A stretch of DNA of 64,000 nt. Origin: a virus (taxonomy: Duplodnaviria; Caudoviricetes). The notes beneath the pieces were generated by a model. It was given only the letters and a program-made list of their open reading frames with translations, did no database searches and had not been told where the DNA came from. The translations under genes were made by a program, and so were the position numbers. Positions 32,706 to 64,000 of this stretch are shown in pieces. Position 1 is the stretch's first letter, and each line of letters opens with the position of its first letter. Location: IMG/VR virus record IMGVR_UViG_3300027804_000001, positions 128,001-192,000 of that record; one strand, given 5' to 3'.

Positions 32706-33847
32706 ATTACGGTTGTTGATTTTTCAAATTTAAATCCTGTTATTTCTTCGTATAGTTTTTCACCATCGGATAAAGTTTTCAAATTATACTTTGGGTACAT
32801 TTTTTTATAATGATTGTGGACTCTATACAACCATTCTTCCCCAAAATGTTTATGTATATAACCAATACAAATGCATTGAAATAATTTAGACCATTTATTA
32901 TACGTTAAATGTTGTATCCCATAGAAATCAAAGTCAAACATTTCTTTTACAAAATCTATTGATGGGATTGAAAGTTCTCTTGTTTCAAATGTGATGATTT
33001 TTGAGTCAATGTTCTCCCCAAATTTATAATCATTTTTAGGATTGTTTTTAGGTAAACTCATTTTAAATCTAATTGGGAAAGTATAGTCATTCATATTGAA
33101 CGGTTCACCATTTCTTTCCTGCATTATGAACATGAATTCATTATTAGATAAAAAATTTCCACCATATTTCATCGAATTTCTATATTCTTTACTAATCTCC
33201 ATTAAATTTAGATGAATCATTAATTGTTCAATATAACAAGCACCATAACCCATTTCGTCAATCAACTCCCTATTTTTTTCATAGTGTTCTAACGAGTACT
33301 TTGTTGCTAAATTAAATGTTTCAAAATCTTTAACATAAACAACGGACATGTTTGGTATTTCACAAATTTTGAAATTATCTATTTTAAATTTGCTGTGTTG
33401 TTTTTCTAAAATAAAAAATAAACCAGAATAACTCTTTGTAAGTAATTTTAAATGTTCTTCATTAATAATTTTAGTTGATGGTTGATCGGGGTGTGCAAAA
33501 AGAAAATCACCACCGATATTTTTAAAATCAAAATGTTTAAATAAAATAGTATCGGTGTCTATATGTAAAAATTCTTCTTTGACATTTTCAAAAACTTTTA
33601 ATTTATAATAACTAAATGTTTTACTTTTTTCATTCTTTAATAACTCAGTATCAACAATATCATAAGGCATTCCAATGTCCTCAATTTGTTTTTTAACAAC
33701 TTCATTTGTATAAATTGAAATGTTATTATATATTTTTTTTGCTGTTAAGGTGCTCAAAAGTTGTGGGTACATTTGTTCCTTCCATATAATATTTTCAATA
33801 TTATTATCTGATATTGGTGGTATAAAACTATGTAATATTTTCAACAT
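32702..33847 (-). CDS. GT-A-like hypothetical protein (DUF6734-like)
   Basis: FLHIDTD, PNMSVV and ACYIEQ. The protein ends TTVI. Confidence 0.5.
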   Translation of the reverse strand: MLKILHSFIPPISDNNIENIIWKEQMYPQLLSTLTAKKIYNNISIYTNEVVKKQIEDIGMPYDIVDTELLKNEKSKTFSYYKLKVFENVKEEFLHIDTDTILFKHFDFKNIGGDFLFAHPDQPSTKIINEEHLKLLTKSYSGLFFILEKQHSKFKIDNFKICEIPNMSVVYVKDFETFNLATKYSLEHYEKNRELIDEMGYGACYIEQLMIHLNLMEISKEYRNSMKYGGNFLSNNEFMFIMQERNGEPFNMNDYTFPIRFKMSLPKNNPKNDYKFGENIDSKIITFETRELSIPSIDFVKEMFDFDFYGIQHLTYNKWSKLFQCICIGYIHKHFGEEWLYRVHNHYKKMYPKYNLKTLSDGEKLYEEITGFKFEKSTTVI

Positions 33848-47900: not shown

Positions 47901-48034
47901 GATGCACTGACCGCGTTCGATGTTGTACCACTAATCGTTGCATTTATGGTTCCTAATACGGTAAGATCCTGTCTTACCTCCATTGAGCCGGATACTGACA
48001 GGGATCCCGTTATAAATGGTTCAAATATTTTCAT
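44927..48034 (-). CDS. Tail fibre/spike protein with two Gly-X-Ser collagen-like tracts and a C-terminal Peptidase_S74-type chaperone
   Basis: C-terminal SSDERLKTNI...GYEFDW...GVIAQEVQKVLPEIV...VKYEKMIAVLIEAIKEQQ. Long (GTS/GSS/GSN)n tracts. TATTTATT upstream. Confidence 0.88.
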   Translation of the reverse strand: MKIFEPFITGSLSVSGSMEVRQDLTVLGTINATISGTTSNAVSASRAVTASFADNSNLLDGKDSTEFAITGSNLFRGNQQVSGSVDITGSLIINGTSYSAATSGTSGTSGSSGTSGTSGSSGTSGSSGTSGTSGSSGTSGTSGSSGSSGSSGSSGSSGSSGSSGTSGSSGTSGTSGSSGSSGTSGSSGSSGTSGTSGSSGSSGSSGTSGTAGTSGSSGTSGSSGTSGTSGTSGTSGSSGTSGSSGSSGTSGSSGSSGTSGTSGSSGTAGTSGSSGTSGSSGSSGSSGSSGTSGQSNSFFNYQAKTNAQNGSDPGSGFISWNNVTQSGSTSINVSDIDGLNNNIDSLVGFLQSGSTIIIQDKTSHTNYQRWRIGTPVDNTTYWTLPVTLLSNGGSSSFSNNQNILLIIASTPSGSSGTSGTSGLNGSSGTSGTSGSSGTSGSSGTSGTSGSSGSSGSSGSSGSSGTSGSSGTSGTSGSSGSSGTSGSSGTSGSSGSSGTSGSNGSSGTSGTSGSSGSSGTSGSSGSSGTSGSNGSSGTSGSSGSSGSSGTSGSSGSSGSSGTSGSSGSNGSSGTSGSSGSNGSSGTSGSSGSSGSSGTSGSSGSNGSSGTSGSSGSSGSSGTSGSSGSSGSSGTSGSSGSNGSSGTSGTSGSSGSSGSSGSSGSSGTSGSSGSSGSSGTSGSSGTAGTSGTSVSVSGTNNTLVKFTSATTVGNSTITDDGTTVTIGGNLVVSGTQTTVNSTTVNIADNIIQLNGTGATNAGLVVRDATASTLVSGSLLWNTTTDRWIAGPLGSEIEIGLISAAQTLTNKTISGASNTITNIGNSSLTNSSVTVTAGTGMSGGGAVALGSSVTLTNAGVTSISGTTNQVSVSANTGGVTLSTPQNIHTTATPTFGGLTINGGTTLNSSTTAVTGALIVGGATTSTTVGLIRASNDIIAFASSDERLKTNIEPIVGSLDKIMSIGGYEFDWIPMEGIHDNSGHDIGVIAQEVQKVLPEIVTTRDNGYMAVKYEKMIAVLIEAIKEQQKQIDEIKSKLQ
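45962..46801 (-). repeat. Gly-X-Ser repeat tract 2 (~280 aa)
   Basis: Gly at every third residue, degenerate codons, no long exact DNA unit. Confidence 0.9.
47156..47728 (-). repeat. Gly-X-Ser repeat tract 1 (~190 aa)
   Basis: Same pattern as tract 2 (GTS/GSS/GTA). Confidence 0.9.
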
Positions 48035-50219: not shown

Positions 50220-50878
50220 TATCTTTTTGTTAATATAATAATTCCATTTAGGAAGTTTATTGATTCAATGTCTACTAAACATCCTGGTTGTGTTTTCATC
50301 GATAAAGATGTTAACCAATCCTCTCTTCTGGCATGTACATTAGGTGCCTCAAAATTCATTAATCCTCTAAAATTAACATCATCAACCAAGGATTTGAATG
50401 TTTCGATGCTTGTAGTTGGTTTTAAATAACCACCTTCGTAATCCTCCCAATACGCAGTACCACAATCTTCAATGATATAAACTCCACCAGGTTTTACGTT
50501 ATTCCACAAATATTGGAAGGAATAAACAACATGTGAATTCATATGTGACCCATCATCCAAAATCATATCAAATGGTCCATATTTTAATTTAATTTCTTTT
50601 AAAAATTCACTATCTGCTTGTGATCCGATTTCAACTGAAACTCTTTCTTCCACATATTGTTTACAATCAGGATTGATGTCGATTCCTATTATTTTGGAAC
50701 GGTAAAAATATTCTTTCCACGATTTTAACGATTTACCATTAAGAACTCCAATTTCTAAAATGTTTAATTCATCATATCTATTAAATGGTAGATATTTTTC
50801 ATACTTAACACAATAATTGTGTATATCGGAACTTTTATCTGTTCCGTGTGATTGTGCAATTTTATTTAGTGTACTCAT
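50219..50878 (-). CDS. Class I SAM-dependent O-methyltransferase
   Basis: GTDKSS..HNY, LEIGV, LDDGSH and GGVYIIED. Confidence 0.8.
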   Translation of the reverse strand: MSTLNKIAQSHGTDKSSDIHNYCVKYEKYLPFNRYDELNILEIGVLNGKSLKSWKEYFYRSKIIGIDINPDCKQYVEERVSVEIGSQADSEFLKEIKLKYGPFDMILDDGSHMNSHVVYSFQYLWNNVKPGGVYIIEDCGTAYWEDYEGGYLKPTTSIETFKSLVDDVNFRGLMNFEAPNVHARREDWLTSLSMKTQPGCLVDIESINFLNGIIILTKR

Positions 50879-53601
50879 CTTGTAAAATATATCATTTGTA
50901 AAGCATTATTTGAACCCATAAACATAAGATATGAATTGAATCCAAGTATAGTCATTCTGTTTATTAATTTCTGTCTTAAATTATCATCATAATTGAAATG
51001 TGAATGATGGTATTCCATTGATATGGTTTTAACTTTCATTAAATTTTCATCACTAATACCTGCAAGTGCATGATGTTCGGCACCTTCAATGTCAACTTTA
51101 AGAAAATCAATCCTATCTATTAAACCCGTTTCAAATAGATAATTTAATGTATATGTTCTTACATTATATGTTTTTGCATTTTCTTGTGTACCAAATAAAT
51201 TTGATCCACCTAAATGTGTACTTTCATATAATGTCATTTCACCAATTTCATTACTTGCTGCACCGTTAAATAAAATAGAACGTGGATCCGCGTTTAATGA
51301 AAGTAATTTAAAATATCTTCTATCAGGTTCAAATGAAATTACTTTACTTGCACCTTGATTATATGCCCATCTATTAAACACACCGATATTCCCACCTAAA
51401 TCCACAACAATATCTCCCTCATTAATTCTTTTTTCTCTTTCTTTATAATAATCTCTTAAGTTAAAAATTTCATGAAATATCGCGGGTGCCCATCCAAATT
51501 TTTCAGCTACTTGAATGGTGCTAGCTTCGTATTCAAATAAATTCTCAAAGTTTTCTAATTTATAAACATCCGTATAAAAACACATTGATTTATAAAATGA
51601 TTTGTCTCTTTGCATTTTAATGAATTCAATCATTCTATCTGATATCTCCGCATTTTTGTTTCCGTGAAAATAAATTATGTCAGATTTATCTTTAGGGATA
51701 TATTGATACCCGAATATTCTATTAAAATTTTGTGGACCTTCTTCATTCCAAAATTTATAAAACTGATGTAAAGTTCTGTCGATAAATCCTTCATCCCCAT
51801 CATAAGAAGATGTGTCAAAGTTTGAAAGTGGTAAATGATTGGTATAACCGTACTTCCATCTCATTGCATTATCAATACCTTCATCATTCCACAAATAAAG
51901 TCTTTTATAATCTTTGGGGTTATTTTTCATTATTGTTTCATAATGATTTATAATTTCTTCGAACCAAGATTTGGAGTTATTGTTATAAATGTAAAAACAA
52001 ACGTGTGCGTATGGATTACCTTTTTTGATTTCCCACTCATTACTTAATTGTTCATTAAATAATTGTGATTTGTTACCATTATCATACATTCCAAAAAATT
52101 CTTCTTGTACGTGAATATCAGATAATGGATAATGACCGACTTTATTAAAATATTTTCTAACAGTATCAATATTATGATTAACAACAACATCACCATCAAT
52201 CCATATAAAGTATTCAAAATCTTCTTTCAAAGATTCAGTACAAGCATGTTGTTTCCAATACCATTTATCGTGTTCAGATATTTTTGGTGGATTTATGGTT
52301 CTCTTTATAATATTCGGATAATCAAATGGAACGTCACAATCCACACCATACACAATAATTTTTTGTTCTGAAAACTCTAATAATGATTGAACTAACTTTT
52401 CAATTACCGGCATATACCCAAGATTACCCGTTGTTACAAAGGCAAATGGTTTCTTATTTCTTGTTAATATATCAGATGCACCTTTTGCAATGGTGTCCCA
52501 ATTAAAGTTTTTATGTATATCTTTTGCGTCACTAACTGATTTAACCCACATTGCGGTATTATAATCATATGACTGTCTCATCTTAAATTTTAAATCCTCC
52601 CAATCTGGCTCACAATACTCACCAGGCCATTCCTTATGTTCAATATTTGCGGGTCTTAATCCTTTAATTGCAACTGGTACACCCTTACCTTCCGCAAATT
52701 GTAATTGTCCCCCCCAATCTGAATATATTGACGGTGTTCCACACGCCATTGCCTCAATTAAAGGTAAATTCCATCCTTCACTTCTTGCGCACGATACGAA
52801 TACATGTGCGGTTTGTAAATAATTTACATATTGTTCTCTCGACGGAAAATTTAAAAACTTAATATTCTTAGTGTCAATACCATAATGTTTAACTCTTTCT
52901 TCCGTTGAATTCATACCGTCATATGGATATGGATTTTCAACAGATGCTAAAAGTTCAACATCGTCAACATCTTTAAATTCTTCCGCAAAGGCTTGTAAAA
53001 TTTCAGTAGTACCTTTTCTATAATCCCATCTACCAAAATGAACAAACCTAACCTTTTCTCTTTTTGGAAATTTTTTAATTGGTTTAAATACATCAACATC
53101 AACACCTTCGGGTACAATAAAAATTCTTTCTTTTGGATACCCTTGTTCCACCAAACAATCAAATTGCCATTGAGTAGGAACCCATACCTCATCAAAGTAA
53201 AAAAGTCTCTTAAAAAATTCATCAGGATATCTAGTTGATTCCCAAACATTATATGCAATCTTATATCCAACATAATCTTCATAGAAATAATGATTATTAG
53301 TTTCCATTAAAACTATGTGTACATCCGGAACAAAATCACCTTTGTAATCATACATCGGTTCATCTACTCTTCCATTACCATCGGATCTATGTAATGTTTG
53401 TAGAATTAACATGTCCTCCATATCTTTGGTAAAATATGATTCACCATCGTGAGGACGATTATTCATTCCCTTCCAACTATTTCCAATTGTAAGGTTTCGT
53501 ATTTTTACTGTATGGTACTTATTGAGAGCACGGAAAAATGATCTTGAATGATTCGCATATCCCGTTGTACCTATAAATGGGGCGTGTCCTAATATCTTCA
53601 T
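50875..53601 (-). CDS. Three-domain fusion: GT4, GT-A (DxD) and FkbM methyltransferase
   Basis: GTTGYANH / FGRWDYRKG / EGWNLPLIEAMACGTP (GT4); WIDGD / NDEG / FHGNK (GT-A); VDLGGNIG / FLKVDIEG (FkbM). Confidence 0.8.
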   Translation of the reverse strand: MKILGHAPFIGTTGYANHSRSFFRALNKYHTVKIRNLTIGNSWKGMNNRPHDGESYFTKDMEDMLILQTLHRSDGNGRVDEPMYDYKGDFVPDVHIVLMETNNHYFYEDYVGYKIAYNVWESTRYPDEFFKRLFYFDEVWVPTQWQFDCLVEQGYPKERIFIVPEGVDVDVFKPIKKFPKREKVRFVHFGRWDYRKGTTEILQAFAEEFKDVDDVELLASVENPYPYDGMNSTEERVKHYGIDTKNIKFLNFPSREQYVNYLQTAHVFVSCARSEGWNLPLIEAMACGTPSIYSDWGGQLQFAEGKGVPVAIKGLRPANIEHKEWPGEYCEPDWEDLKFKMRQSYDYNTAMWVKSVSDAKDIHKNFNWDTIAKGASDILTRNKKPFAFVTTGNLGYMPVIEKLVQSLLEFSEQKIIVYGVDCDVPFDYPNIIKRTINPPKISEHDKWYWKQHACTESLKEDFEYFIWIDGDVVVNHNIDTVRKYFNKVGHYPLSDIHVQEEFFGMYDNGNKSQLFNEQLSNEWEIKKGNPYAHVCFYIYNNNSKSWFEEIINHYETIMKNNPKDYKRLYLWNDEGIDNAMRWKYGYTNHLPLSNFDTSSYDGDEGFIDRTLHQFYKFWNEEGPQNFNRIFGYQYIPKDKSDIIYFHGNKNAEISDRMIEFIKMQRDKSFYKSMCFYTDVYKLENFENLFEYEASTIQVAEKFGWAPAIFHEIFNLRDYYKEREKRINEGDIVVDLGGNIGVFNRWAYNQGASKVISFEPDRRYFKLLSLNADPRSILFNGAASNEIGEMTLYESTHLGGSNLFGTQENAKTYNVRTYTLNYLFETGLIDRIDFLKVDIEGAEHHALAGISDENLMKVKTISMEYHHSHFNYDDNLRQKLINRMTILGFNSYLMFMGSNNALQMIYFTR

Positions 53602-53634: not shown

Positions 53635-54207
53635 TCAAATCAATTTCTTATCTTTTGTGAAATATTTTGAACCATATGGAAAGGGGATATCACTTTGCAA
53701 TTCGAATATATTCTTCAATTTCTCTATTCCATTTTCATAATACAAATGTTCATATGAAATGGTTGGCAAATCGTTTTGATTTGCAAAATCAATGAGGGTC
53801 TTTTTATTAAATTCTACCTCCTCTTTGAATTTATCATAATCTTCCTTAACAAACACTCTGTCCACATCTTTTTGTGTATAGTTATGATGATATCGATTCT
53901 CTTTACTTGAATACATGTGTGAGATGGTTTGTTCGTGTGTGTTTTCCCTATAAAGACAAAGAATCTTTGTACTTAATTTTAAAATCATACTGTAATTTTG
54001 TTCGGGATACCATAACTCTTTAATGAAATATTTTTTGTTTTCTAACCAGTCAAAGTCCTGTAAGGTTGTATCATTTGTGTAAATGTTAAAATCTGAATTA
54101 AATGGTTCATGAATTACAATGAATTCATTATTAAGTGATTGTTTTATCCAGTTCATTAGATTTTGACCACCAGTTCTATATTGTGCTATAATGGTATATA
54201 ATGTCAT
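53635..54207 (-). CDS. Sulfotransferase-like protein
   Basis: QYRTGGQNL (PAPS loop-like), HEPF, LYRE and ISYEHL. The protein ends KKLI. Confidence 0.55.
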   Translation of the reverse strand: MTLYTIIAQYRTGGQNLMNWIKQSLNNEFIVIHEPFNSDFNIYTNDTTLQDFDWLENKKYFIKELWYPEQNYSMILKLSTKILCLYRENTHEQTISHMYSSKENRYHHNYTQKDVDRVFVKEDYDKFKEEVEFNKKTLIDFANQNDLPTISYEHLYYENGIEKLKNIFELQSDIPFPYGSKYFTKDKKLI

Positions 54208-55274
54208 TATATCATAGTTTTTTTCATATCTAAAAACTCGTGTAGATTATGAAACACAAATGGGTCCTTGGCAACTTTATTAAATTCAATAAGAAAATCA
54301 TTATGATTAGGATGATTAACATCCCATACTTTTAAAAACTCAAATTGTTCATGTGTAAAAGTGCCCCAATTATTTATCTTACCATAAAAAACTTTTGTTT
54401 TCATACCAAAGATACTTTTCATTTGTTCTAAAAAAATACCCATTTCTTTATAGTTAGATTGTTGAACCACAAATGATGTTTTAACTTTTTTCATTTTAGG
54501 TATTGTGGCAATAAATTTAAGATTGGAAATTAAATTTTCCCATTCCCCATTTAATCTAGTTACATTCTCATATGTTTCTTTTGTACCCGCATCTATACTG
54601 ATTTCACATGTTAACACATAAGGATGAATATTTATCATTGATTCCCACATTTCTTTATTCCATAAACTTGCATTAGTATGTAGGTGTATATTTTTAAGTT
54701 TTGGGTACTTCTTAGGATTAAAGTTTCTAAGATAGTTTCTGTATGATACCGATGCAAATGGATCCGCGGTACCCGAACAATAAATTGTTTCTATTGAATT
54801 TGAGAAGGCTTCCTCCATTTCTTCGATTGTGGAATTAATTCTATTAATACCTTCCGAATTTGCAACAATCATTTTAACTCTACAAGATGGACATTTATAA
54901 TTACAAGTTCTATCAAAAGACATTTGTAATATTGTGGGACCATGTTCCATATGTGATTCCTTTTTTTCATAATGTTCTTTAATATAATCAGGTAAATTTT
55001 CAATTTTTTGTATGGGACCTGATGAGTCCATGTTGTAATTTAATAATTGAGCCAAAAATGGACATTGGGTTTTATCACAAAATCTATAGGAACCATCCAT
55101 CACCGATTCTCTAATTTCTATTGCCTCTTTACTATTCCATAAGTCTTTCAATGGAATTTTGTTTGGTAATTCCTTAGTCAACCAACTTGCACAACACATA
55201 AAATTTTTATTTTCATGTATTTCAACTGCTTGAAATGGAACAGTACAAACGTAATTCTTTAAATCAATATCCAT
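54207..55274 (-). CDS. Radical SAM protein with N-terminal SPASM/twitch-like domain
   Basis: CNYKCPSC (CxxxCxxC), CTVPF..CC..DLWNS, SGTADPF and HTNA. The protein ends KTMI. Confidence 0.85.
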   Translation of the reverse strand: MDIDLKNYVCTVPFQAVEIHENKNFMCCASWLTKELPNKIPLKDLWNSKEAIEIRESVMDGSYRFCDKTQCPFLAQLLNYNMDSSGPIQKIENLPDYIKEHYEKKESHMEHGPTILQMSFDRTCNYKCPSCRVKMIVANSEGINRINSTIEEMEEAFSNSIETIYCSGTADPFASVSYRNYLRNFNPKKYPKLKNIHLHTNASLWNKEMWESMINIHPYVLTCEISIDAGTKETYENVTRLNGEWENLISNLKFIATIPKMKKVKTSFVVQQSNYKEMGIFLEQMKSIFGMKTKVFYGKINNWGTFTHEQFEFLKVWDVNHPNHNDFLIEFNKVAKDPFVFHNLHEFLDMKKTMI

Positions 55275-55277
55275 ATT

Positions 55278-55766
55278 TTATAATATAGTTCTTTTTTTAT
55301 TTAATCTCAATCTATTTTCTCCTTTGGGATTAAACAAATCTTCATAATATGTTATAGATATTCCTGTAATATTAGACAATTCTCTTAATTGTATGTCCCA
55401 ATTGATAATATCATTTTTACATTCTTCAAAAACGTTTATTGGGACTTCTTCATATACATATGGATTATTTGAATTGTATTTTTTTGTTTTAGAATAAAAA
55501 GTTTGATATGAGTGTGACTCTATACATTCCCCAATATTTTTTCTTGTTAAAAGAATTACCTCATCAAAATTTTTTAATAATTCTAAATTGTTTGGGTGGT
55601 GGGATACTATTGTTTTTACTACAATATTATCTTCGTCCTTTTTATATTGGATTCTATTTGTACCATCAAAGGGTTCAAACAAAGGTTTTAGATTTTTTTC
55701 CTTCGAAATTTTTTTTAGTAATGACGTAGATCCCGTTCTTGGTAAAGAAATTATGAGGATTCTCAT
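55278..55766 (-). CDS. Sulfotransferase-like protein
   Basis: SLPRTGSTSL, FEPF, LTRKN and TYYEDL. The protein ends KRTIL. Confidence 0.6.
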   Translation of the reverse strand: MRILIISLPRTGSTSLLKKISKEKNLKPLFEPFDGTNRIQYKKDEDNIVVKTIVSHHPNNLELLKNFDEVILLTRKNIGECIESHSYQTFYSKTKKYNSNNPYVYEEVPINVFEECKNDIINWDIQLRELSNITGISITYYEDLFNPKGENRLRLNKKRTIL

Positions 55767-56317
55767 AATAATTTTTTCGTTTTATCTATTTTATAATATA
55801 CAAAGTTAGTATCATTCATCCATATGTTTAAAGCACATCTTAATCCAAAATTAACAGGCATAACACCATGATAAGTTTTGTTACCTTCGAAAGTTATACC
55901 CTCACCAATATTTAAATGTTGAATAACTTCTGAATCCTTTAGATTCACAAATTTGGGGGACAAACAAAAATCCCCATCCTCATAACCATCAGTCAACGAA
56001 ATAACAGTAGTATAGTTCGATGTTGAGTCTAAATGTAAATCCAAAAACCTACCCTCATAGTATCTTGTTAAACTAACATTTATGTTTGTTAAATTAAAAG
56101 AATTAAAATCAAACCAAAAGGAAATTGAACCCTGTTTATATAAACTATTTATATTATTTAATATCTTTTTTTTGAAGTCCTCATCATAAATCCTTCTACA
56201 ATCCCATGTTGTTTGTTCAAAATCATAATATGAAAAAGTTTCACCTTTTTCCATTGCAAAATCTATTATTGATTTACATTCTTCACGAGTAAAAAATTTA
56301 TTTATGGAATAATTCAT
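55763..56317 (-). CDS. 2OG-Fe(II) oxygenase (prolyl-4-hydroxylase-like)
   Basis: LHLD, YHGV and R-x-A. The protein ends KKLL. Confidence 0.8.
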   Translation of the reverse strand: MNYSINKFFTREECKSIIDFAMEKGETFSYYDFEQTTWDCRRIYDEDFKKKILNNINSLYKQGSISFWFDFNSFNLTNINVSLTRYYEGRFLDLHLDSTSNYTTVISLTDGYEDGDFCLSPKFVNLKDSEVIQHLNIGEGITFEGNKTYHGVMPVNFGLRCALNIWMNDTNFVYYKIDKTKKLL

Positions 56318-57135
56318 AATAATAATGAATAAGGTTCTTTTAAATTATAACCCAATAAATTGTTTTTTTGAATAAAATCGTAAATTTCTTCTGCAATTAA
56401 TTTATAACCATTTTTATTAGGATGTTTACCTAATTGAGATTCTGTAAAATGTGAGTTATCTTCCCATACATTTTTTCTGTTCGTTTCAATTAATAAATCT
56501 CTAAATGTTCTATTCTCAAATCCCCAATAATGTTTTCTATTTATTAGATTTGTTTTATCTATTTCTTGATTGATTGGATTTTTTATTAATGAATCAAAAG
56601 CATCACAAAACATATACCTTATTCCCATCTCATTGAACATATGTTGTAGGTAAAAAATATAATTTTGATTTATAATATTGTAATATGTGTCACAATAAAG
56701 ATTTGTTAGGTAGAATTCTTTGTAACTTAAACTCGCCCTATCAAATATTACGTTATTTTCTATTGTTTTATTAAAAATTGGTGTATAAATGTGTTTCTTA
56801 CTTTTATATCTTTCTCCCCAAAAATGCCACTCCCCCTTTGGGAAAAATGGAACATCATCCCTTAAAAAGGATGTCCACATTATTACAATAAAATCTCCTC
56901 GATTTATTTGATTGGATTTTAAACAATGTGAAACGGTCTCAAATATAATGTTATTTGATGCTCCTCCAATACCATTGTTAATGAATTCAACATTTAAAAT
57001 TTCTGAAAGATATCTTGGCCAACAAAACTCTTGTCTTATTTTAGTTCTTTCTTCTGGTGTATCATATTCGAGTTCTTTATTTGAATCCCCGCCAACACCT
57101 TCAGTCCAACTATCTCCAAATGTAAATAATCTCAT
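56314..57135 (-). CDS. SGNH-like protein
   Basis: TFGDSWTEG, NNGIGGASN and KHPNKNG. The protein ends YSLLL. Confidence 0.6.
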   Translation of the reverse strand: MRLFTFGDSWTEGVGGDSNKELEYDTPEERTKIRQEFCWPRYLSEILNVEFINNGIGGASNNIIFETVSHCLKSNQINRGDFIVIMWTSFLRDDVPFFPKGEWHFWGERYKSKKHIYTPIFNKTIENNVIFDRASLSYKEFYLTNLYCDTYYNIINQNYIFYLQHMFNEMGIRYMFCDAFDSLIKNPINQEIDKTNLINRKHYWGFENRTFRDLLIETNRKNVWEDNSHFTESQLGKHPNKNGYKLIAEEIYDFIQKNNLLGYNLKEPYSLLL

Positions 57136-57141
57136 TATGCA

Positions 57142-57279
57142 TTATTGCAAGTGTTTTGCTTTTATTGCATTAATTACCGATTGTACCGCAGTTGATATTT
57201 TTGTTTTAACACCATTTGAAATTGGTGCAATTGTTGGTTTTATAACTTGAGCGGGTCTTTCTGTTCTGATTGTTGACAT
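57142..57279 (-). CDS. Small basic protein, 45 aa (not in ORF track)
   Basis: Manual translation MSTIRTERPAQVIKPTIAPISNGVKTKISTAVQSVINAIKAKHLQ*. Confidence 0.65.
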   Translation of the reverse strand: MSTIRTERPAQVIKPTIAPISNGVKTKISTAVQSVINAIKAKHLQ

Positions 57280-57306
57280 AACTTAAATATTTTTATAATT
57301 TTGATT

Positions 57307-58800
57307 TTATAATTTTGGTGGTAAACCTTGGTTACAACCCGAACAGCTGCTATCATAACAATAGTATCCACATGAATACCATGGACACCAACAACTATTA
57401 TGCATTACACTAAAAATACCATCACCTAAATCAACAAGAAATAAATCCGATGGCTCAAAGTCTAATCCATAAATCATCATACTTGAATGTTCCATTTCTA
57501 AATTGGTTATTTCAATAGTGGTTAACTCTTGTGTATTAGAGTCTGTTACTACTAATTTATCACCAATGTACATGTTATTTAATTTTTCAAATCTTGTCGA
57601 TAGTGATCCTGATTCTTCAATATAATACACACATGATGGAGAATCAACCCAAGTTTTACCATCTGAAGTAGTAATCCTAATAAAAATAGTATCAATTGAT
57701 GATGAAACAATCCCTTCTAATGAGGATGACATTTGTGTTAACGTTTCGTTACTTTGTGCTAAACTACCACTCCATCCCAACACGTCTAACTTACCTTGCT
57801 CAAAATAAGCAGCATGATTATCATTATAATCGATAAAGTCAATTGTTCTAATTAAACTTCCTAATTGTATGTTTGAAACATTTACTAATGACCCCGTATA
57901 ATCAATGATATTTGAATCAATATCAGTGTGGTAACTGTCCATTTTTTGGTTTATACCAACCTCTTTTGTGATATATTTTTGTCTAGTTTTTTGTGTTAAT
58001 TTTGTTGTATCATTTACAAATTCATTAAGACCAAAATTTAAAGGTACGACGGTTGATTGTCTGTATCCACCCAAATTTATAACGTCTAAATTACTACCAT
58101 AAACAATATCAATACTTCTAATTATTGAATATTTTCCATCCACCAAATTGTCTGTTGAAAATAAAAACTCCTGTAATAGGTAATTTTCAGATAAATTACC
58201 CTTCAACGAAGTTAATTGGGTTGCATCGTTTAATATATGTAATTCAGGGTATAGTGCTGTGTCATAATTAGGTATACGAGCTTTAATAACTATATTCGGG
58301 TTACTGAGATTTGAAAAGTCAACAGAATCTAAAGTGTCCATACCTAAATTATTTGAAACAAAGTAGGTCTTTGGAACGTAGGTACTACCACTCATTAAAT
58401 TAAAAAATCCAAATTTATCGGCACAGTATGAATCATCAATTAAGGCCGTTGTGTCAAAAGATTGTCTTAATATAAACTTATTAGGTGCGTCTTCAATATA
58501 AGGTACCGTTATAGAATTAGTTGGTACGGTATATTCAGAAAATTGTATGTTATTTTCTGAACATTTTTGTTGTAATTTTTGTTTAAAAACATAGGGTGAG
58601 TTTGAGGGAGAGTGTGAGTCATTCTCGGTGAAAATAAAATGAAATTCACTTATATTATTGTCCACTAACATCCCAAATAACGAATCGTAATCTAATAACT
58701 CTGCACCACTATTGTATATGGTTGTATTGGTATTTGTTTCTAATATTTTTACATCATCATTGTGTTCTAACAAATCAGTACCAAGAATAATTCCTTTCAT
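57307..58800 (-). CDS. Circularly permuted ATP-grasp-like domain, Hint domain and Cys/Trp/Tyr-rich C-terminal peptide
   Basis: N-terminal D-x11-E-x-N (GTD...ILETN), VIKAR and LLQEF. Hint-like TGSLVNVSNIQLGSLIRT...IGDKL...YGLDFEPSDLFLV...VMHN. Then SCWCPWYSCGYYCYDSSCSGCNQGLPPKL. Confidence 0.6.
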   Translation of the reverse strand: MKGIILGTDLLEHNDDVKILETNTNTTIYNSGAELLDYDSLFGMLVDNNISEFHFIFTENDSHSPSNSPYVFKQKLQQKCSENNIQFSEYTVPTNSITVPYIEDAPNKFILRQSFDTTALIDDSYCADKFGFFNLMSGSTYVPKTYFVSNNLGMDTLDSVDFSNLSNPNIVIKARIPNYDTALYPELHILNDATQLTSLKGNLSENYLLQEFLFSTDNLVDGKYSIIRSIDIVYGSNLDVINLGGYRQSTVVPLNFGLNEFVNDTTKLTQKTRQKYITKEVGINQKMDSYHTDIDSNIIDYTGSLVNVSNIQLGSLIRTIDFIDYNDNHAAYFEQGKLDVLGWSGSLAQSNETLTQMSSSLEGIVSSSIDTIFIRITTSDGKTWVDSPSCVYYIEESGSLSTRFEKLNNMYIGDKLVVTDSNTQELTTIEITNLEMEHSSMMIYGLDFEPSDLFLVDLGDGIFSVMHNSCWCPWYSCGYYCYDSSCSGCNQGLPPKL

Positions 58801-58896
58801 TTTTTTGTGTTAAGTTTTATATTAATAAATATACAATTTATTAAAAAGATAATCAATGTTTATCTTAAAATAATATATATACGTATATACGTATGT

Positions 58897-59202
58897 TTAA
58901 ATTATTGTTTTATTATTTTTTTCAATTTGGGGTTCTAAAAGACCGTTGTCAGAATCGCCCCATTTTTTAAGTGGACAGGAATTGTAAATGTTAGAAAATA
59001 TTTTTTTATTTAATGGACACCCACATCTTAAACAAATTTCTGACCACCTATTATTTTTAATTAATGGTTTCTTATACTCACATGTTGAACAAATTGAATA
59101 CCTTTTTTCTGCTAGTTCTTTTTGTTCCTTAGTAGGATTTTTGGCACTTAACCAAGAGTTAAAGATTTCCTTATAGTTATATTCTATTCCGTTAATTTTC
59201 AT
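58897..59202 (-). CDS. Small Cys-rich zinc-binding protein (DUF6171-like)
   Basis: RYSICSTCE...CLRCGCPL...SCPLKKW. The protein ends KTII. Confidence 0.6.
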   Translation of the reverse strand: MKINGIEYNYKEIFNSWLSAKNPTKEQKELAEKRYSICSTCEYKKPLIKNNRWSEICLRCGCPLNKKIFSNIYNSCPLKKWGDSDNGLLEPQIEKNNKTII

Positions 59203-59990
59203 AATAAAGTCTTTGTTTCTTTAACAATATCGTAATAATCATAAATACCATCATAGGTATTTTTAAACTCTTCATTTAATTTTATGAAACAGTCCACATT
59301 TTTACTAGAATTGGTTTTTTCCAATTTAAAAGGTTTATTTATTTTAATACTAACCCATTTTTCTAATTCTTTTATATTGTCAAAATCAAACCAAATTATA
59401 TCTTTATTATGATGATGATAATTCGAGGTCGGCGTTAATAATATTTCAAAAATATTAAGAATATAGGAATCTATTTTTTTTTCTTTATCAAAAATAGATT
59501 CACCCACATCTATTCTCGTATCATTTAGTTGAACTCTTTTTTTTATAAAATTGTTTTTAATTAAAAAATCGTTTATCACATTTACTCTGCTTTCCTTACT
59601 CATTAAATCGTCGGTTGAGAAAAAAAATAATTCTTTTATATCGATATTTTTTAAATGTTCACTTACATAATGTGCTCCAATTCTTTGGGTATCGAAAATA
59701 ATTTGTTTAAATAATGAAAAAAACCTATCGTATTTATTTCTTTTTACACATAAAATTGGATAATTGTCCCCAAATTTTTTTTGTAAATCAAATAAACTTT
59801 CGTGTCCATGTTTTATTAAATCCATTAAGTTACTCTTTTCTATATTTTTTAAATCAATTTTATTATTGTTTTCATTTATAGAATTAGTTACAAATTTAAC
59901 ATTTAAATTATTTAATATACATGAATAATGAAAAGATGTGGATGCACATCTAGGTATTGATATATAAAAAAATTTATTGTCTACTAACAT
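59199..59990 (-). CDS. Sulfotransferase family 2-like protein
   Basis: FFYISIPRCASTS, HGH, RNKYDRFFS and KTNSS. The protein ends KTLL. Confidence 0.6.
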   Translation of the reverse strand: MLVDNKFFYISIPRCASTSFHYSCILNNLNVKFVTNSINENNNKIDLKNIEKSNLMDLIKHGHESLFDLQKKFGDNYPILCVKRNKYDRFFSLFKQIIFDTQRIGAHYVSEHLKNIDIKELFFFSTDDLMSKESRVNVINDFLIKNNFIKKRVQLNDTRIDVGESIFDKEKKIDSYILNIFEILLTPTSNYHHHNKDIIWFDFDNIKELEKWVSIKINKPFKLEKTNSSKNVDCFIKLNEEFKNTYDGIYDYYDIVKETKTLL

Positions 59991-60610
59991 TATAGTAAAT
60001 TTTTGGGGCTTTTACTTTTGGCTGCAAAGTTGAAATTTATGATAAACCTATCACCATCCAATGGATAATTGGCGTGATGAGCTAGTCTACCGTCAAAAAC
60101 AAAACATCTTCCCATTTTTGGGGACACTCTTTTTAGTAGAGAATAAGAATCATAATTAACGTTATTAAAGTTTTCTTGGAAGGATTGAACGTTATCTCCA
60201 TTTACGTTTGTATAAAGACAGGTGTCACCTGTCGAATCGTTAACATAATAGACCACCGCAATGTGTTCATTTATCCTATCGTAATGTAATAAATGCATCG
60301 GATTGTGTTCAAAACTAATAGGTTGGGTCCAGTTAATTTTCCATCTATAATTTTGAACAAATTCTAAGTTTATTTTTTCCGAAATTCTAATTTGGAAATC
60401 ACTGATTAAATCTTTAATCTTATCATCCTTACAGTTATTTTGAGGGTGGACTTTGGCGGGGAATTTATGTGTACTTAATTTACCACCATAATATCCCGTA
60501 ACATTTTCCATGAATTCCCATTTTATGTTTTGATTTTTAACATATTCATATAAAATCTCTTGATTTTCTTTTGAAATTATATCGTCAAATATGTAATAAT
60601 TTTTAATCAT
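59990..60610 (-). CDS. 2OG-Fe(II) oxygenase
   Basis: LHYD, YYVNDSTGDT, LAHHA and R-F-I-I-N. The protein ends KNLL. Confidence 0.75.
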   Translation of the reverse strand: MIKNYYIFDDIISKENQEILYEYVKNQNIKWEFMENVTGYYGGKLSTHKFPAKVHPQNNCKDDKIKDLISDFQIRISEKINLEFVQNYRWKINWTQPISFEHNPMHLLHYDRINEHIAVVYYVNDSTGDTCLYTNVNGDNVQSFQENFNNVNYDSYSLLKRVSPKMGRCFVFDGRLAHHANYPLDGDRFIINFNFAAKSKSPKNLL

Positions 60611-61260
60611 AATAAACTTTTCTCTTTTTTAATATAATCAAACCCAACATTACCGGCCACAACAATTCTATCAATAGTTGAATTCGGAGCATTATTTGGT
60701 GAGTGTGGCATATCGGCCTCCATTATTATTAAATCATCATTCTCAGGTCTAATCCAATATTCTTTTTTATTTTTTCCTCTAAAATATAACACACCATCTT
60801 CTCCATTCATTACATCCGGCATTTGAATGTAATAGACATAAGTATAATGAGGGGTAAATGATTTCATTTCTTTATTTATATCAGTATGAACGTGAAATTT
60901 GTCAACCCCTTTTAACTCTTCATGTTTGAATTGAATTTGAACCGGATTCGTTGATCTCACAACATTAACCCAAACCTCCGTATTGATTTTATTATACGTG
61001 GTATTTGTTTCTTCGTAAAGTTTTTTACAAGAATCTATCCCAATTTGTATTATTTCATCTAATTTTGTTTCAATTTTAACCTCACCTAAATAATTCAAAT
61101 TTTTATTCCATTCTTTTTTATACCCAAATCCATCTGTTTTAGTATCTGGTTGTGATTCAATAACGGAGTTTGCCAATTTTAATAATTCGGATTTGTCAGA
61201 TACTCGGTTTAATTTAGTTTTCCAAATATATGTGGTCTCGTCAAAATATAATTTTTCCAT
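60607..61260 (-). CDS. 2OG-Fe(II) oxygenase (TIGR02466-like)
   Basis: VHTD, YVYYIQMP, MPHSP and RIVVAGN. The protein ends KSLL. Confidence 0.7.
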   Translation of the reverse strand: MEKLYFDETTYIWKTKLNRVSDKSELLKLANSVIESQPDTKTDGFGYKKEWNKNLNYLGEVKIETKLDEIIQIGIDSCKKLYEETNTTYNKINTEVWVNVVRSTNPVQIQFKHEELKGVDKFHVHTDINKEMKSFTPHYTYVYYIQMPDVMNGEDGVLYFRGKNKKEYWIRPENDDLIIMEADMPHSPNNAPNSTIDRIVVAGNVGFDYIKKEKSLL

Positions 61261-62510
61261 TAAATTATGTTTTTAAACTTACCTTTTTTATTTTTTTTGT
61301 AGACCATATCATAATTGTAAATCAGAAATGGTAATTTGTCTTCTGTCCAATATTCAAATTCAAAAGATTTCAATAAATCAGTGTCGTTTTTTAACGTTAA
61401 TTTATTATCATTATCCAAGATGGATTTAAGTTTTGTTGGTATGGGGGCATTATACGCATCTTTCCAAAATTCGGTATCTAATCTTTCATTAAGATAATGA
61501 TACCTAACAAACATCATATTTTGTTCATTTGTTTCGGCACAAATTTTATTAAACATGTCTCTATAGGAAGTATCAAATTCGAAATCAATTAGTCTTTTTA
61601 ATTGTATAATAGTAGACATTAATGATGTTGCTTCCAACGGTTCTAAAAAACCATAAGACAATCCGATTGAAATACTATTACCTATCCAACTCCTTTTAAA
61701 TGTACCAGCTTTGAAGTCAAAAACTTTTTGTATTGTTATTTCATGTCCTAAATGTTCTTCTACTTCTTTTTTTGCGTCCTCAACGGAGACGTATTTATCA
61801 TTAAATGCATATCCACACCCCAATCTATGTTGTAGTGGTATTTGAAACATCCATCCACAATTCATTGCACACAAGTATGTGTGAGTCAAATCTTTGTAAG
61901 AAATGGATTTCATCTGAGGTAAAAAGAAACCAAATGCTTTATTAACTAAAAGATATTCTGAATAATCAATCCAACTTTCTTTATGGACACCACTAATAAT
62001 CAATCTAGCAAAACCACTACAATCGAATACAAAATCTAAATTAATAATTTCTCCGTTTGAAAGTTCAATATTATTTATGATTTCATTTGTATTATTTATT
62101 TTAATAACTTCTCCGTCTATCCAATTTACTCCCCTTCCTAATGCAATATTTTTAAAATATTCTGAGACTTTCCTAGCATCAAAGTGAAATGCAGAATAAC
62201 TTCTTACATCGTTTGTTTGTTTATTGTTTTGATGAAATAAGTGTTCTGATTCACTTCCTTTGTGTGTCCAATTAATTAATTGAAGTCCATTTTTGGTTGT
62301 TGATCCCGTTTTTTCTAAAAATTCTTTTACGTTTATATCTAATAATTTAAGAAATAAACCGAAATTAGATGTACCACCTTCACCAGCACCTAATATCCCA
62401 ATTTTAGAACTTTCAATTAGAGTAACTTTTGTGTCTTTCCAAAACTTTTGTACACTTAACGCAGTTGCCCATCCCGCAGTCCCTCCTCCAATTATCACAA
62501 CATTTTTCAT
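61260..62510 (-). CDS. Flavin-dependent halogenase-family (tryptophan halogenase-like) protein
   Basis: GGGTAGW, GAGEG, TTKNG (catalytic Lys position), DCSGF, GWMFQIP (WxWxIP variant) and GFLEPLEATS. The protein ends KNII. Confidence 0.8.
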   Translation of the reverse strand: MKNVVIIGGGTAGWATALSVQKFWKDTKVTLIESSKIGILGAGEGGTSNFGLFLKLLDINVKEFLEKTGSTTKNGLQLINWTHKGSESEHLFHQNNKQTNDVRSYSAFHFDARKVSEYFKNIALGRGVNWIDGEVIKINNTNEIINNIELSNGEIINLDFVFDCSGFARLIISGVHKESWIDYSEYLLVNKAFGFFLPQMKSISYKDLTHTYLCAMNCGWMFQIPLQHRLGCGYAFNDKYVSVEDAKKEVEEHLGHEITIQKVFDFKAGTFKRSWIGNSISIGLSYGFLEPLEATSLMSTIIQLKRLIDFEFDTSYRDMFNKICAETNEQNMMFVRYHYLNERLDTEFWKDAYNAPIPTKLKSILDNDNKLTLKNDTDLLKSFEFEYWTEDKLPFLIYNYDMVYKKNKKGKFKNII

Positions 62511-63076
62511 AATAAATTAATTTTTTTTATTGACGAAGGCCACACATTTATTGAATATCTTTTACCACTTACAATTGGTTCTACCGAATGTGTAATGTTG
62601 GATTCAAATATAAAAACACTTCCTTTTATTTTTGGTACGTTATATTCGGTTCCATCTAATATATATTTCACAAAACCACCATCATATTCGTCATTTAATT
62701 GAATAATAAAAGTTAATGTGGCACCATTTATTATCTCATGATTATCTTCGTGCCACTCTAAAAAATCATCTTTGTTATAACGATTAAATGAATATTTTAA
62801 AACTTTGACATATTCAATAGAATTAAGTGGTTTTAATCTATTACATGTGTTTATTATTTTTTTTGTTTGGTGTTCTAATATTGGGTCTAATAAAACCTCA
62901 TTGACAAAATAACAACCCATTCTTTTATTACCTTTATATTCCAAATTAGAATCGATTAGTTTACCTTTTACTATTTTAGATGACTTCATTTCTTTCAATG
63001 ACATCGACTCACCCAAATTTATTAGATAATCACACTCATCGTTGGTTAAAAAATTCTCAATCAATTTAGTGTACAT
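62507..63076 (-). CDS. 2OG-Fe(II) oxygenase (P4H-like)
   Basis: WHED, YDGG, THSVEP and RYS. The protein ends KINLL. Confidence 0.82.
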   Translation of the reverse strand: MYTKLIENFLTNDECDYLINLGESMSLKEMKSSKIVKGKLIDSNLEYKGNKRMGCYFVNEVLLDPILEHQTKKIINTCNRLKPLNSIEYVKVLKYSFNRYNKDDFLEWHEDNHEIINGATLTFIIQLNDEYDGGFVKYILDGTEYNVPKIKGSVFIFESNITHSVEPIVSGKRYSINVWPSSIKKINLL

Positions 63077-63078
63077 AA

Positions 63079-63627
63079 TTAGATTAAACTTTTAATTTTA
63101 TTTTCAATTTTTTGCAATCCAACCCAATTAACTATTGAATATCTGGTACCACTAATTATAGGTGTTATTCTATGTAATTTGTTTGATGGGAATAAAAATA
63201 AATTTCCAGCACCCTCTTCTAATTTTAAGTTTTCTTTATCTCCAACAATTTCAAAATTTCCACCGGTGTATTCGTCGTTTAATTGGATGACGGCTGAGTA
63301 GAACCTTTCGGGTCGGATTTCAATTGTTGAATCAACATGCCAATCATAATAACCACCAATTTCATATTGAGTGAATTGAAATTTACTTAAGTTGGTTACT
63401 GTATGTCCATTTATGGGCAATTTATCTCTAAGAACTTCTTTTAATTTTTCGTTTAAAAAACCTAAATTATCAATTCCTGCCACATTAGATTTTCTACCGT
63501 CTTTTGAATCTCCATAAACATCTGCCGGTTTTAATTCCAATTCGACTAAACATTTATTTAGAATGAAATTACATTCTTCTTTTGATAAAAAATTTTTTAT
63601 GGTAAAAATATTATTCATTTTTTCCAA
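63079..63627 (-). CDS. 2OG-Fe(II) oxygenase (PKHD/P4H-like)
   Basis: WHVD, YTGG, LHRITP and RYSIVNW. The protein ends KSLI. Confidence 0.85.
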   Translation of the reverse strand: MEKMNNIFTIKNFLSKEECNFILNKCLVELELKPADVYGDSKDGRKSNVAGIDNLGFLNEKLKEVLRDKLPINGHTVTNLSKFQFTQYEIGGYYDWHVDSTIEIRPERFYSAVIQLNDEYTGGNFEIVGDKENLKLEEGAGNLFLFPSNKLHRITPIISGTRYSIVNWVGLQKIENKIKSLI

Positions 63628-63823
63628 TTCCGTATTTACTAAATTTATACCACACCCTTTCGTGTAGAAAATAAATAATTGGTTTTAAAATTATTTCACC
63701 TAAACCGACCATACTAGCCCATTTAAGTGGTAAACCAGCTGAAACTGTTAATAAAATTGTTGTAATAGTACCAACAATTCTGTAGGTTATACTTTTTGCA
63801 ATGTGTCTTTTAATTAGTGGCAT
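63611..63823 (-). CDS. DUF2061-family small membrane protein
   Basis: RHIAKSITYR and YFLHERVW. Confidence 0.75.
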   Translation of the reverse strand: MPLIKRHIAKSITYRIVGTITTILLTVSAGLPLKWASMVGLGEIILKPIIYFLHERVWYKFSKYGIGKNE

Positions 63824-64000
63824 TATATCAACGTTAACTCTTTTTTCTTACCTATTTCAAAAAACATTATTAAACTAAATCTTACTCCTTTTATTACAGG
63901 TAAGACTCTGTGTGGTAATTTATTGTTAGATATTATAGATAAGTTATTTTTTGGTTTTATTTTTATTTTTTCTTTCTTTTCGTCTATGTATTCAAATTCC
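63823..64000 (-). CDS. C-terminal end of a sixth 2OG-Fe(II) oxygenase (starts beyond the window; not in ORF track)
   Basis: Manual translation ...NKLPHRVLPVIKGVRFSLIMFFEIGKKKELTLI*. Confidence 0.75.
   Translation of the reverse strand, partial: EFEYIDEKKEKIKIKPKNNLSIISNNKLPHRVLPVIKGVRFSLIMFFEIGKKKELTLI

Follow-up and report, generated by a model that had tools for sequence, protein, structure and literature searches.

What leads a run of tailoring enzymes with different folds to stop at nearly the same four residues? The question is raised by a 64,000-nucleotide stretch of viral DNA from the IMG/VR record IMGVR_UViG_3300027804_000001 (hereafter the window), in which one gene block, at positions 53,635-64,000, encodes proteins that mostly end in a lysine-rich segment, two aliphatic residues and then the stop codon. 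We find that this tail is far more frequent than chance allows, that it is retained in whole protein families across related phages with the consensus K-[ST]-L-I-COOH, and that it has the appearance of a short peptide read by a partner protein. Our preferred reading, to which we give a probability of roughly 0.5, is that it is a recruitment tag for enzymes working on one shared protein substrate.

The block holds 16 open reading frames (ORFs), all in one direction: six 2-oxoglutarate (2OG)-Fe(II) oxygenase genes, of which one is a 69-aa remnant, a tryptophan-type flavin halogenase, a radical S-adenosylmethionine (SAM) enzyme, three sulfotransferase-like proteins, an SGNH hydrolase, a 101-aa Cys-rich protein, a central 497-aa protein, a 45-aa ORF and a DUF2061 membrane protein. 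In window coordinates they are as follows.

53635..54207, minus strand: sulfotransferase-like protein, 190 aa, ends KKLI; no Pfam match; final block gene, with a 33-nt gap after it
54207..55274, minus strand: radical SAM enzyme, 355 aa, ends KTMI; the tail is 7 residues beyond the domain end ...FHNLHEFL
55278..55766, minus strand: sulfotransferase-like protein, 162 aa, P-loop LPRTGST, ends RTIL; family 6
55763..56317, minus strand: 2OG-Fe(II) oxygenase, 184 aa, ends KKLL; PF13640
56314..57135, minus strand: SGNH/GDSL-like hydrolase, 273 aa, ends SLLL; family 8, typical end S-Y-L-[LI]
57142..57279, minus strand: conserved ORF, 45 aa, untagged, ends KHLQ; downstream of the central protein in 76/82 loci
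57307..58800, minus strand: central protein, 497 aa, untagged, ends PPKL; 59-73% identity across the clade
58897..59202, minus strand: Cys-rich Zn-ribbon-like protein (CxxC...CxxCGCP), 101 aa, ends KTII; family 3; followed by a 96-nt intergenic gap
59199..59990, minus strand: sulfotransferase-like protein, 263 aa, IPRCASTS motif, ends KTLL; family 1; weak PF03567 match, E 0.049
59990..60610, minus strand: 2OG oxygenase, 206 aa, ends KNLL
60607..61260, minus strand: 2OG oxygenase-like protein, 217 aa, ends KSLL; family 5
61260..62510, minus strand: flavin-dependent Trp-type halogenase, 416 aa, ends KNII; PF04820, E 4e-81
62507..63076, minus strand: 2OG oxygenase, 189 aa, ends INLL
63079..63627, minus strand: 2OG oxygenase, 179/182 aa, ends KSLI; predicted fold prolyl-4-hydroxylase-like
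63611..63823, minus strand: DUF2061 membrane protein, 70 aa, untagged, ends GKNE
63823..64000, continuing to 64032 in the genome, minus strand: 69-aa ORF, ends LTLI; the C-terminal half of a 2OG domain alone, probably the remnant of a 2OG oxygenase

An initial annotation, made from the letters alone, had listed 13 such endings in the block, three exceptions to them (the central protein, called a Hint fusion there and ending PPKL, the 45-aa ORF ending KHLQ and the DUF2061 protein ending GKNE) and three tagged genes dispersed elsewhere in the window (KTIL, GKLI and TTVI), all of which are present in the sequence as described. Its view that the tagged proteins are unrelated is right insofar as the tail is carried by six or more folds in the window and by eight or more across the clade, but the 2OG genes are paralogues of one another, and the sulfotransferase-like genes probably share an origin.

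The window corresponds to bases 32,178-96,177, read on the minus strand, of a 180,831-bp viral record (G000) with a G+C content of 30.8% and a CheckV completeness of 54%, in which a crude gene call found 262 genes. With the tail defined as [LIM][LI]-COOH, 13/16 block genes carry it against 13/246 genes elsewhere in the record (Fisher p = 1.5e-12), and under a stricter definition that adds K/R at position -4 the tail is still found in 10/16 block genes. Amino-acid composition alone gives an expectation of 3.0%, and among out-of-frame stop-terminated segments, our control for AT-rich codon bias, 5.8% are tagged and 0.5% have K/R at -4 as well. Genes outside the block that overlap the next start through ATGA or TAATG have the ending in 1/42 cases. 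Two tagged block genes are followed by real gaps, 96 nt past KTII and 33 nt past KKLI, and the former gap, 3' of the Zn-protein gene, means that the KTII tail is not part of a gene overlap. The nucleotide, sugar and glycosyltransferase gene sets of the same genome lack the tail. Chance does not explain the block endings, and AT bias or overlapping junctions, which the initial annotation had named as possible causes, fall far short of the observed frequency.

A further internal control is provided by a ∼30-kb co-directional run of sugar-nucleotide and glycosyltransferase genes with many ATGA overlaps, located outside the window at genome 284-30492. Here the hydrophobic-pair ending occurs in 1 of ∼30 genes (LKIL).

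We searched viral contigs with the halogenase, which yielded 12 loci, and then with the central protein, which yielded 80. Genes were called in the 82 loci and the resulting 1,632 proteins were clustered into families. The complete relatives are ∼288 kb in size, one of them with terminal repeats, and PHROG matches in the relatives to baseplate, tail-fibre, head-tail adaptor and virion proteins show the phage studied here to be a tailed jumbo phage. Queries with the cluster DNA, the radical SAM enzyme and the central protein found no cultured relatives among GenBank phages, where the sole homologues are distant cyanophage 2OG genes that are untagged.

Tagging across the 82 loci is bimodal, with 13 families of 8-159 members each being 95-100% tagged and conserved neighbours 0%. 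The tagged families are listed here with their sizes.

2OG oxygenase family: n=159, 100% tagged
Sulfotransferase-like, 253 aa (family 1): n=84, 100% tagged
Zn protein (family 3): n=78, 97% tagged
2OG-like, 217 aa (family 5): n=69, 99% tagged
Sulfotransferase-like, 174 aa (family 6): n=63, 100% tagged
Halogenase family: n=59, 100% tagged
SGNH (family 8): n=49, 98% tagged
414-aa family with no assigned function: n=21, 95% tagged
2OG, 207 aa: n=17, 100% tagged
Radical SAM family: n=15, 100% tagged
DUF6734-like family: n=15, 100% tagged
Methyltransferase-like family: n=9, 100% tagged
Further 2OG family: n=8, 100% tagged

The neighbours at 0% are the central protein (81 members), the 46-aa ORF that corresponds to the 45-aa ORF of the window (76), the DUF2061 protein (42), an HxGH nucleotidyltransferase-like protein (34), a 908-aa glycosyltransferase/methyltransferase and the sugar enzymes, while the adenosine-5'-phosphosulfate (APS) kinase family is mixed, with 32% tagged. 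Orthologues thus retain the ending rather than dropping it, an outcome that the initial annotation had left open. Among the matches listed, 120/120 halogenase homologues with at least 59% identity end in [LIFV][IL], mostly as KELI.

Residue frequencies taken over 368 non-redundant tails give the consensus K-[ST]-L-I-COOH following a Lys-rich linker. The last residue is I in 72% and L in 26%, always directly at the stop codon, and the second-last is L in 76% and I in 21%; F, M, V, W and Y together make up no more than 3% of these two positions. At the third-last position (-3) S or T is found in 60%, and otherwise K, N, E or Y, with E in most halogenases. The fourth-last (-4) is K in 57% and N in 14%, and extra lysines occur at -5 to -7 (K at -7 in 51%). 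The share of I at the last position varies among genomes in a continuous spread from 36 to 100%, without clear groups, and therefore I/L usage offers no covariation handle on the reader.

The nucleotide sequence of the tails indicates that the constraint acts on amino acids and not on DNA. Leu and Ile codon usage in the tail is close to that of the rest of the genes, apart from a modest surplus of codons ending in A at the final position, which ATGA overlaps demand; for Ser at -3 both AGT and TCN are used; and 27/78 tagged genes (35%) are followed by a spacer of more than 5 nt. The radical SAM family, compared through 150 representatives, shows the tail in 13/20 of the closest homologues, and most homologues below ∼38% identity stop at the domain end HNFHHLL, with no tail. 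Taken across families, such comparisons suggest that at least eight unrelated enzyme folds gained the tail separately and that selection keeps it. In the Synechococcus phage S-CAM8 (NC_021530, 33153-37978; locus L024) a homologous run of 2OG oxygenases adjoins a tail-fibre gene and is untagged. The tag appears to have been added to this 2OG/tail-fibre arrangement by the jumbo-phage clade only.

The structure of the KSLI-tagged 2OG oxygenase was predicted using 54 family members, and the resulting model has a mean predicted local distance difference test (pLDDT) score of 89.7. Its last strand spans residues 159-170 and its final nine residues are coil with a pLDDT of 55, so that the tail is modelled as a disordered extension. 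The best structural matches, with template modelling (TM) scores of 0.7-0.79, are Pseudomonas PPHD, algal and chlorovirus collagen prolyl 4-hydroxylases and PHD2. The resemblance of the tagged 2OG enzymes to protein prolyl hydroxylases indicates a protein or peptide substrate.

What, then, might read the tail? Because the choice of residues is narrow, the position at the C-terminus exact and the linker flexible and basic, the signature looks like that of a peptide recognised by a pocket in a protein, one that also senses the free carboxylate. We hypothesize that the flexible Lys-rich linker of ∼6-9 residues, ending in K-[ST]-L-I with a free carboxylate, serves as a short linear recognition motif, in which the aliphatic side chains at the two final positions, together with the terminal carboxylate, would enter a pocket on a partner common to all the tagged enzymes, and the -4 Lys would touch an acidic rim of that pocket. 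All tagged enzymes would thereby be gathered at the same place, the likeliest being a shared macromolecular substrate or scaffold, with the assembling virion or procapsid, or another hub, as alternatives. Both the binding of a partner by the tail and the choice of partner are what we infer from these features. The distribution of the tail over enzyme types matches what a recruitment tag predicts, in that it is found on enzymes acting on macromolecules and not on those that make diffusible cofactors, which for the most part lack it (0% for sugar-nucleotide enzymes and for the HxGH protein, 32% for APS kinase).

Several known systems use short recognition elements of this kind. Peroxisomal targeting signal 1 (PTS1), [SAC]-[KRH]-[LM]-COOH, is read by the TPR domain of PEX5, and like the phage tail it is an exact C-terminal signal of three or four small polar, basic and aliphatic residues, carried by many unrelated enzymes and read with its free carboxylate. 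It differs in being eukaryotic and in its order, S-K-L as against K-S-L-I here, and no TPR- or PEX5-like reader or compartment is known for the phage tag. Class I PDZ ligands, x-[ST]-x-[VIL]-COOH, share the free C-terminus and the aliphatic last residue, and S or T stands two positions before the end in ∼60% of the phage tails, but the strong preference for Leu at the second-last position and for Lys at -4 are not class I features. The protease Tsp/Prc also reads free tails, but it is periplasmic, as bacterial PDZ proteases mostly are, whereas the enzymes here need cytoplasmic cofactors, which makes Tsp/Prc an unlikely reader. The clamp-binding motif QL[SD]LF-COOH and the tail of single-stranded DNA-binding protein (SSB) are short hydrophobic motifs, in many cases C-terminal, that dock unrelated proteins on one hub, and their ending is similar in the form S-L-Φ, where Φ is a hydrophobic residue; the phage tag lacks the clamp motif's Gln and initial Leu, however, and the tagged proteins are not DNA enzymes. 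Finally, leader peptides of RiPPs (peptides made on ribosomes and modified after translation) and the RiPP recognition element (RRE) resemble the phage system in that one recognition element serves many tailoring enzymes, and the phage cluster has a peptide-tailoring make-up. RiPP pathways place the tag on the substrate and the reader domain on the enzymes; here the enzymes carry the tag, so that the logic would be inverted, and no RRE domain was found.

The order of genes in the cluster is conserved. A module for the supply of 3'-phosphoadenosine-5'-phosphosulfate (PAPS), consisting of APS kinase, the HxGH protein and DUF2061 in many relatives, is followed by tagged 2OG, halogenase, 2OG-like, sulfotransferase-like and Zn-protein genes, then by the untagged central protein with the 46-aa ORF, and then by SGNH, 2OG, sulfotransferase-like and other enzymes that are again tagged. 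Of the untagged partners in the cluster, only the central protein and the adjacent 46-aa ORF are universal. We regard the central protein as the leading candidate for the docking site, as substrate or scaffold, though this remains a tentative choice and on balance an improbable one.

An alignment of relatives shows that the N-domain of the central protein has many invariant charged residues, including D9 and E21-x-N23, and that it is followed by a Hint-like region closing in an invariant His-Asn and then by an invariant six-Cys peptide, x-CWCPW-xx-CG-xx-C-xxxx-C-xx-C...K-[LIV]. Several homologues (∼563 aa) add an S74-like tail-fibre-type chaperone region 3' of the Cys peptide, with a weak Pfam match (2 members, E 0.065). 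The protein itself had no match by Pfam (including 30 homologues), by profile search of the Protein Data Bank (PDB) or to CP_ATPgrasp_2. Its AlphaFold2 model (pLDDT 49) is too poor to settle the fold; a fold search with it returned weak intein matches (Z 4-5.2, residues 364-440), and the neighbours of the protein in a language-model search are viral clusters with PT-HINT/Vint (0.94) and ATP-grasp/TTL (0.77) domains. These results give weak but consistent support for a Hint domain. If Hint-like cleavage took place at His-Asn, it would free a ∼29-residue peptide rich in Cys, Trp and Tyr, and with a ligase-like, active-looking N-domain on the same chain, ligation or cyclisation of that peptide is conceivable.

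These features can be combined into an inverted RiPP pathway, in which the central protein would be a self-cleaving precursor made up of the N-domain, the Hint-like domain and the six-Cys Trp/Pro peptide, and the tails of 10-16 enzymes would dock on this precursor or on a hub. We consider such a pathway speculative and more probably wrong than right. In a variant of it, suggested by analogy with encapsulin cargo, the tail would load the enzymes into the procapsid. As for RiPP-type traits, the six-Cys/Trp/Pro peptide after His-Asn is present, support for the Hint domain is weak, and no Pfam, RRE or known RiPP enzyme family turned up.

The genomic context of the central gene includes a short AT-rich motif, which in the window lies as follows.

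58824..58832, minus strand: ATATTTATT, matching RTATTTATW, 24 nt 5' of the central gene start

RTATTTATW occurs 20-35 nt upstream of the central gene in nearly all relatives, in intergenic sequence that is otherwise divergent. In the complete relative G003 it is also found 5' of the first 2OG gene of the cluster and of baseplate/tail-fibre, head-tail adaptor and virion structural genes, and in the genome studied here it lies 5' of a collagen-like fibre gene (∼48065, minus strand). Its sites, which in G003 include 46152, 50780 and ∼30 others, are 18-40 nt before gene starts with a strong coding-strand bias; its overall count is not above shuffle. We propose the motif as a candidate late-type promoter element, and its presence before the central gene, the first cluster enzyme gene of G003 and tail and baseplate genes suggests late expression. 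An AT-rich palindrome, ACATACGTATATACGTATATAT, stands directly after the Zn-protein stop (window 58847-58896, minus strand) and is followed by an inverted repeat AGATAA...TTATCT. A similar TATATAC[AG]TATATA palindrome is found at the same place in many relatives and may act as a terminator or, lying before the promoter-like motif, as an operator.

A number of observations weigh against recruitment to a shared substrate. Profiles PDZ_2 and PDZ_6 had no match in G000 or in the complete relatives G002 and G003, CLP_protease (ClpP) had none in G000 and the two complete relatives, and Peptidase_S41 had none in G000, the only genome in which it was sought. Nothing physically ties the tail to the central protein, whose ATP-grasp and Hint assignments are weakly supported (poor fold model, no Pfam match). 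A few tagged proteins sit far from the cluster, the clade is known from uncultured phages only, and a Lys-rich tail ending in Ile resembles a ClpX degron of the MuA type. Co-folding of the central protein with the KSLI-tagged 2OG oxygenase gave a score of 0.01 against a mark of 0.32, which we use neither for nor against binding. A search for classical AAA domains returned only proteins of 315-412 aa, which appear to be clamp-loader-sized. We also considered the DUF2061 protein as a reader and find this unlikely, since its gene is ∼200 kb from the cluster in G003. The phage-encoded address label proposed by the initial annotation is a reasonable reading with partial support: a selected, family-independent, protein-level mark of tailoring enzymes stands, and the PDZ partner envisaged for it was not found in the genomes searched.

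The alternative that survives best, though we think it rather unlikely, is that the tail is a degron or unfoldase signal, read by a host AAA+ machine such as ClpX that sets enzyme lifetime or remodels complexes. The C-motif-2 degron of MuA, ...NRRKKAI, is transferable and recognised by ClpX (PMC12723719), and it too is the tail of a phage protein with basic residues followed by a terminal Ile, much as K is found at -4 in 57% and at -7 in 51% of the phage tails. Three-residue C-terminal motifs can suffice for ClpXP degradation, as for LPF in Streptococcus mutans (PMC5143411). A host reader would be compatible with the finding of no phage-encoded one, and the phage has a transfer-messenger RNA (tmRNA; 394 nt, tag peptide ATSNVAVA), encoded with an array of 25 tRNAs outside the window (genome 162,223-169,809; locus L018 6223-13809), through which it engages the host C-terminal tagging system. 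The MuA motif has a small Ala before its Ile, however, and the preferences for S/T at -3 and L at -2 are foreign to it; it also belongs to one protein rather than to 10-16 enzymes. If expression is late, as the promoter-like motif suggests, programmed turnover would be of little obvious use, and the nucleotide, sugar and glycosyltransferase sets of the same genome are untagged. Retention near 100% in 13 families likewise exceeds the apparent need of a convenience degron.

Less probable still, in our view, is a role in cargo loading, with the tail taking the enzymes into the procapsid or onto the virion. The model for such a signal is the cargo peptide of family 1 encapsulins (GSLxIGSLK, GGDLGIRK), which binds the luminal face of an HK97-fold shell and is likewise short and C-terminal, joined by a flexible linker and containing one cation besides two or three Leu/Ile residues (PMC10960027). 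The shell has the phage capsid fold, and in both cases only proteins linked to the system are tagged and homologues elsewhere are not, as seen here for the distant radical SAM enzymes and cyanophage 2OG genes. The candidate late-type promoter would fit, as would the tail-fibre-type S74 chaperone region of some central-protein homologues, for which the Pfam match is weak (E 0.065). The consensus is not of the GSLxIGSLK or LTVGSLRR type, however, and its order is different, in that the cation precedes the hydrophobic pair in K-[ST]-L-I and the pair stands at the very end, which encapsulin peptides need not do. There is no shell or head gene in the tagged cluster, which does not adjoin the head genes, and enzymes dependent on 2OG, reduced flavin adenine dinucleotide (FADH2), SAM and PAPS would be inactive in a capsid.

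A minimal membrane-targeting sequence is very unlikely. The tail would then act as a MinD-like, Lys-rich amphipathic end at the inner membrane, perhaps near the DUF2061 membrane protein that is present in many clusters, and lysines and hydrophobic pairs do sometimes lie about one helical turn apart (...KKVLKKELI in many halogenases). MinD-type targeting uses an amphipathic helix of ∼8-12 residues that tolerates large hydrophobics, including F, and whose position relative to the end is not critical. The phage pair is instead fixed at the last two positions, always at the exact C-terminus beside the negative carboxylate, and is made up of L and I, with the best membrane-inserting residues (F, W, M) almost absent; the tail is predicted with low confidence as coil, and DUF2061 is encoded far from the tagged cluster in G003.

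A tail without protein function, arising passively from AT-rich codon bias, from stop/start overlaps that couple translation or from recombination at conserved gene junctions, is not supported and in our view a long shot. In its favour, the genome is 31% G+C and tightly packed, 9/13 tagged block genes overlap the next start, and where the overlap is ATGA the final codon has to end in A (TTA, ATA). Against it, the out-of-frame and overlapping-junction controls rarely show the tail (5.8%, or 0.5% with K/R at -4, and 1/42), 35% of tagged genes have a gap after them, synonymous codons vary with Ser drawn from two codon families, and 13 families retain the tail at 59% protein identity, with conserved neighbours in the same arrays staying at 0%.

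The tag is thus most likely a C-terminal label of the sorting or recognition type, in an abundant, unstudied and uncultured clade of ∼290-kb freshwater and marine phages. Short terminal tags sort unrelated enzymes in peroxisomes, encapsulins and microcompartments and to proteases, but we are aware of no such tag in a phage-encoded tailoring pathway, nor of any with this sequence, and literature searches on jumbo phages with halogenase and sulfotransferase, on Hint with ATP-grasp and RiPP systems in phages, on viral halogenases and on boreal jumbophages turned up no description of the tail or cluster. Four residues suffice to pick out, with hardly an error, the members of one pathway from ∼400 phage proteins, which gives a rule for annotation: proteins of these genomes that end in K-[ST]-L-I and have no assigned function are likely members of it. 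If transferable, the tag would be a very small candidate for co-localising enzymes, and if the inverted RiPP reading is true it would represent a new viral way of organising a multi-enzyme modification line. Naming the reader would separate an enzyme assembly line from particle loading and from the hijack of a host protease.

Outside the block, the window contains three dispersed tagged genes and a large untagged gene directly after the block.

21433..22125, minus strand: dispersed protein, 230 aa, ends KTIL
30719..31354, minus strand: dispersed SGNH-like protein, 211 aa, ends GKLI; a paralogue of the cluster SGNH gene and of another tagged copy in the genome (INLL)
32702..33847, minus strand: dispersed DUF6734 protein, 381 aa, ends TTVI; the DUF6734-like family within related clusters is 100% tagged
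50875..53601, minus strand: glycosyltransferase with FkbM methyltransferase, 908 aa, untagged (YFTR), and untagged in the 10/10 relatives that have it

Tagged paralogues also stand alone away from the cluster, as the SGNH copies do in this genome and a further radical SAM gene does in a complete relative, at a distance of ∼25 kb, which again indicates a constraint on the protein.

Two genes are located upstream of the LTLI remnant, at genome 31331-32355: one is APS-kinase-like, and the other is small and encodes an HxGH nucleotidyltransferase-like protein. With DUF2061 they make up the PAPS-supply module, which is ∼200 kb from the tagged cluster in other relatives, as is the DUF2061 gene in the complete G003.

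The window also encodes a long fibre protein.

44927..48034, minus strand: collagen-repeat fibre with a Peptidase_S74 chaperone domain, 1035 aa; local G+C peak 43%

We considered this fibre as a common substrate of the tagged enzymes and rejected it, because it is near the cluster in this genome only among the 82 related loci and the complete G003 has none. The tRNA genes number 26 in total, and the one outside the array is a tRNA-Ile(TAT) at L015 5439-5512.

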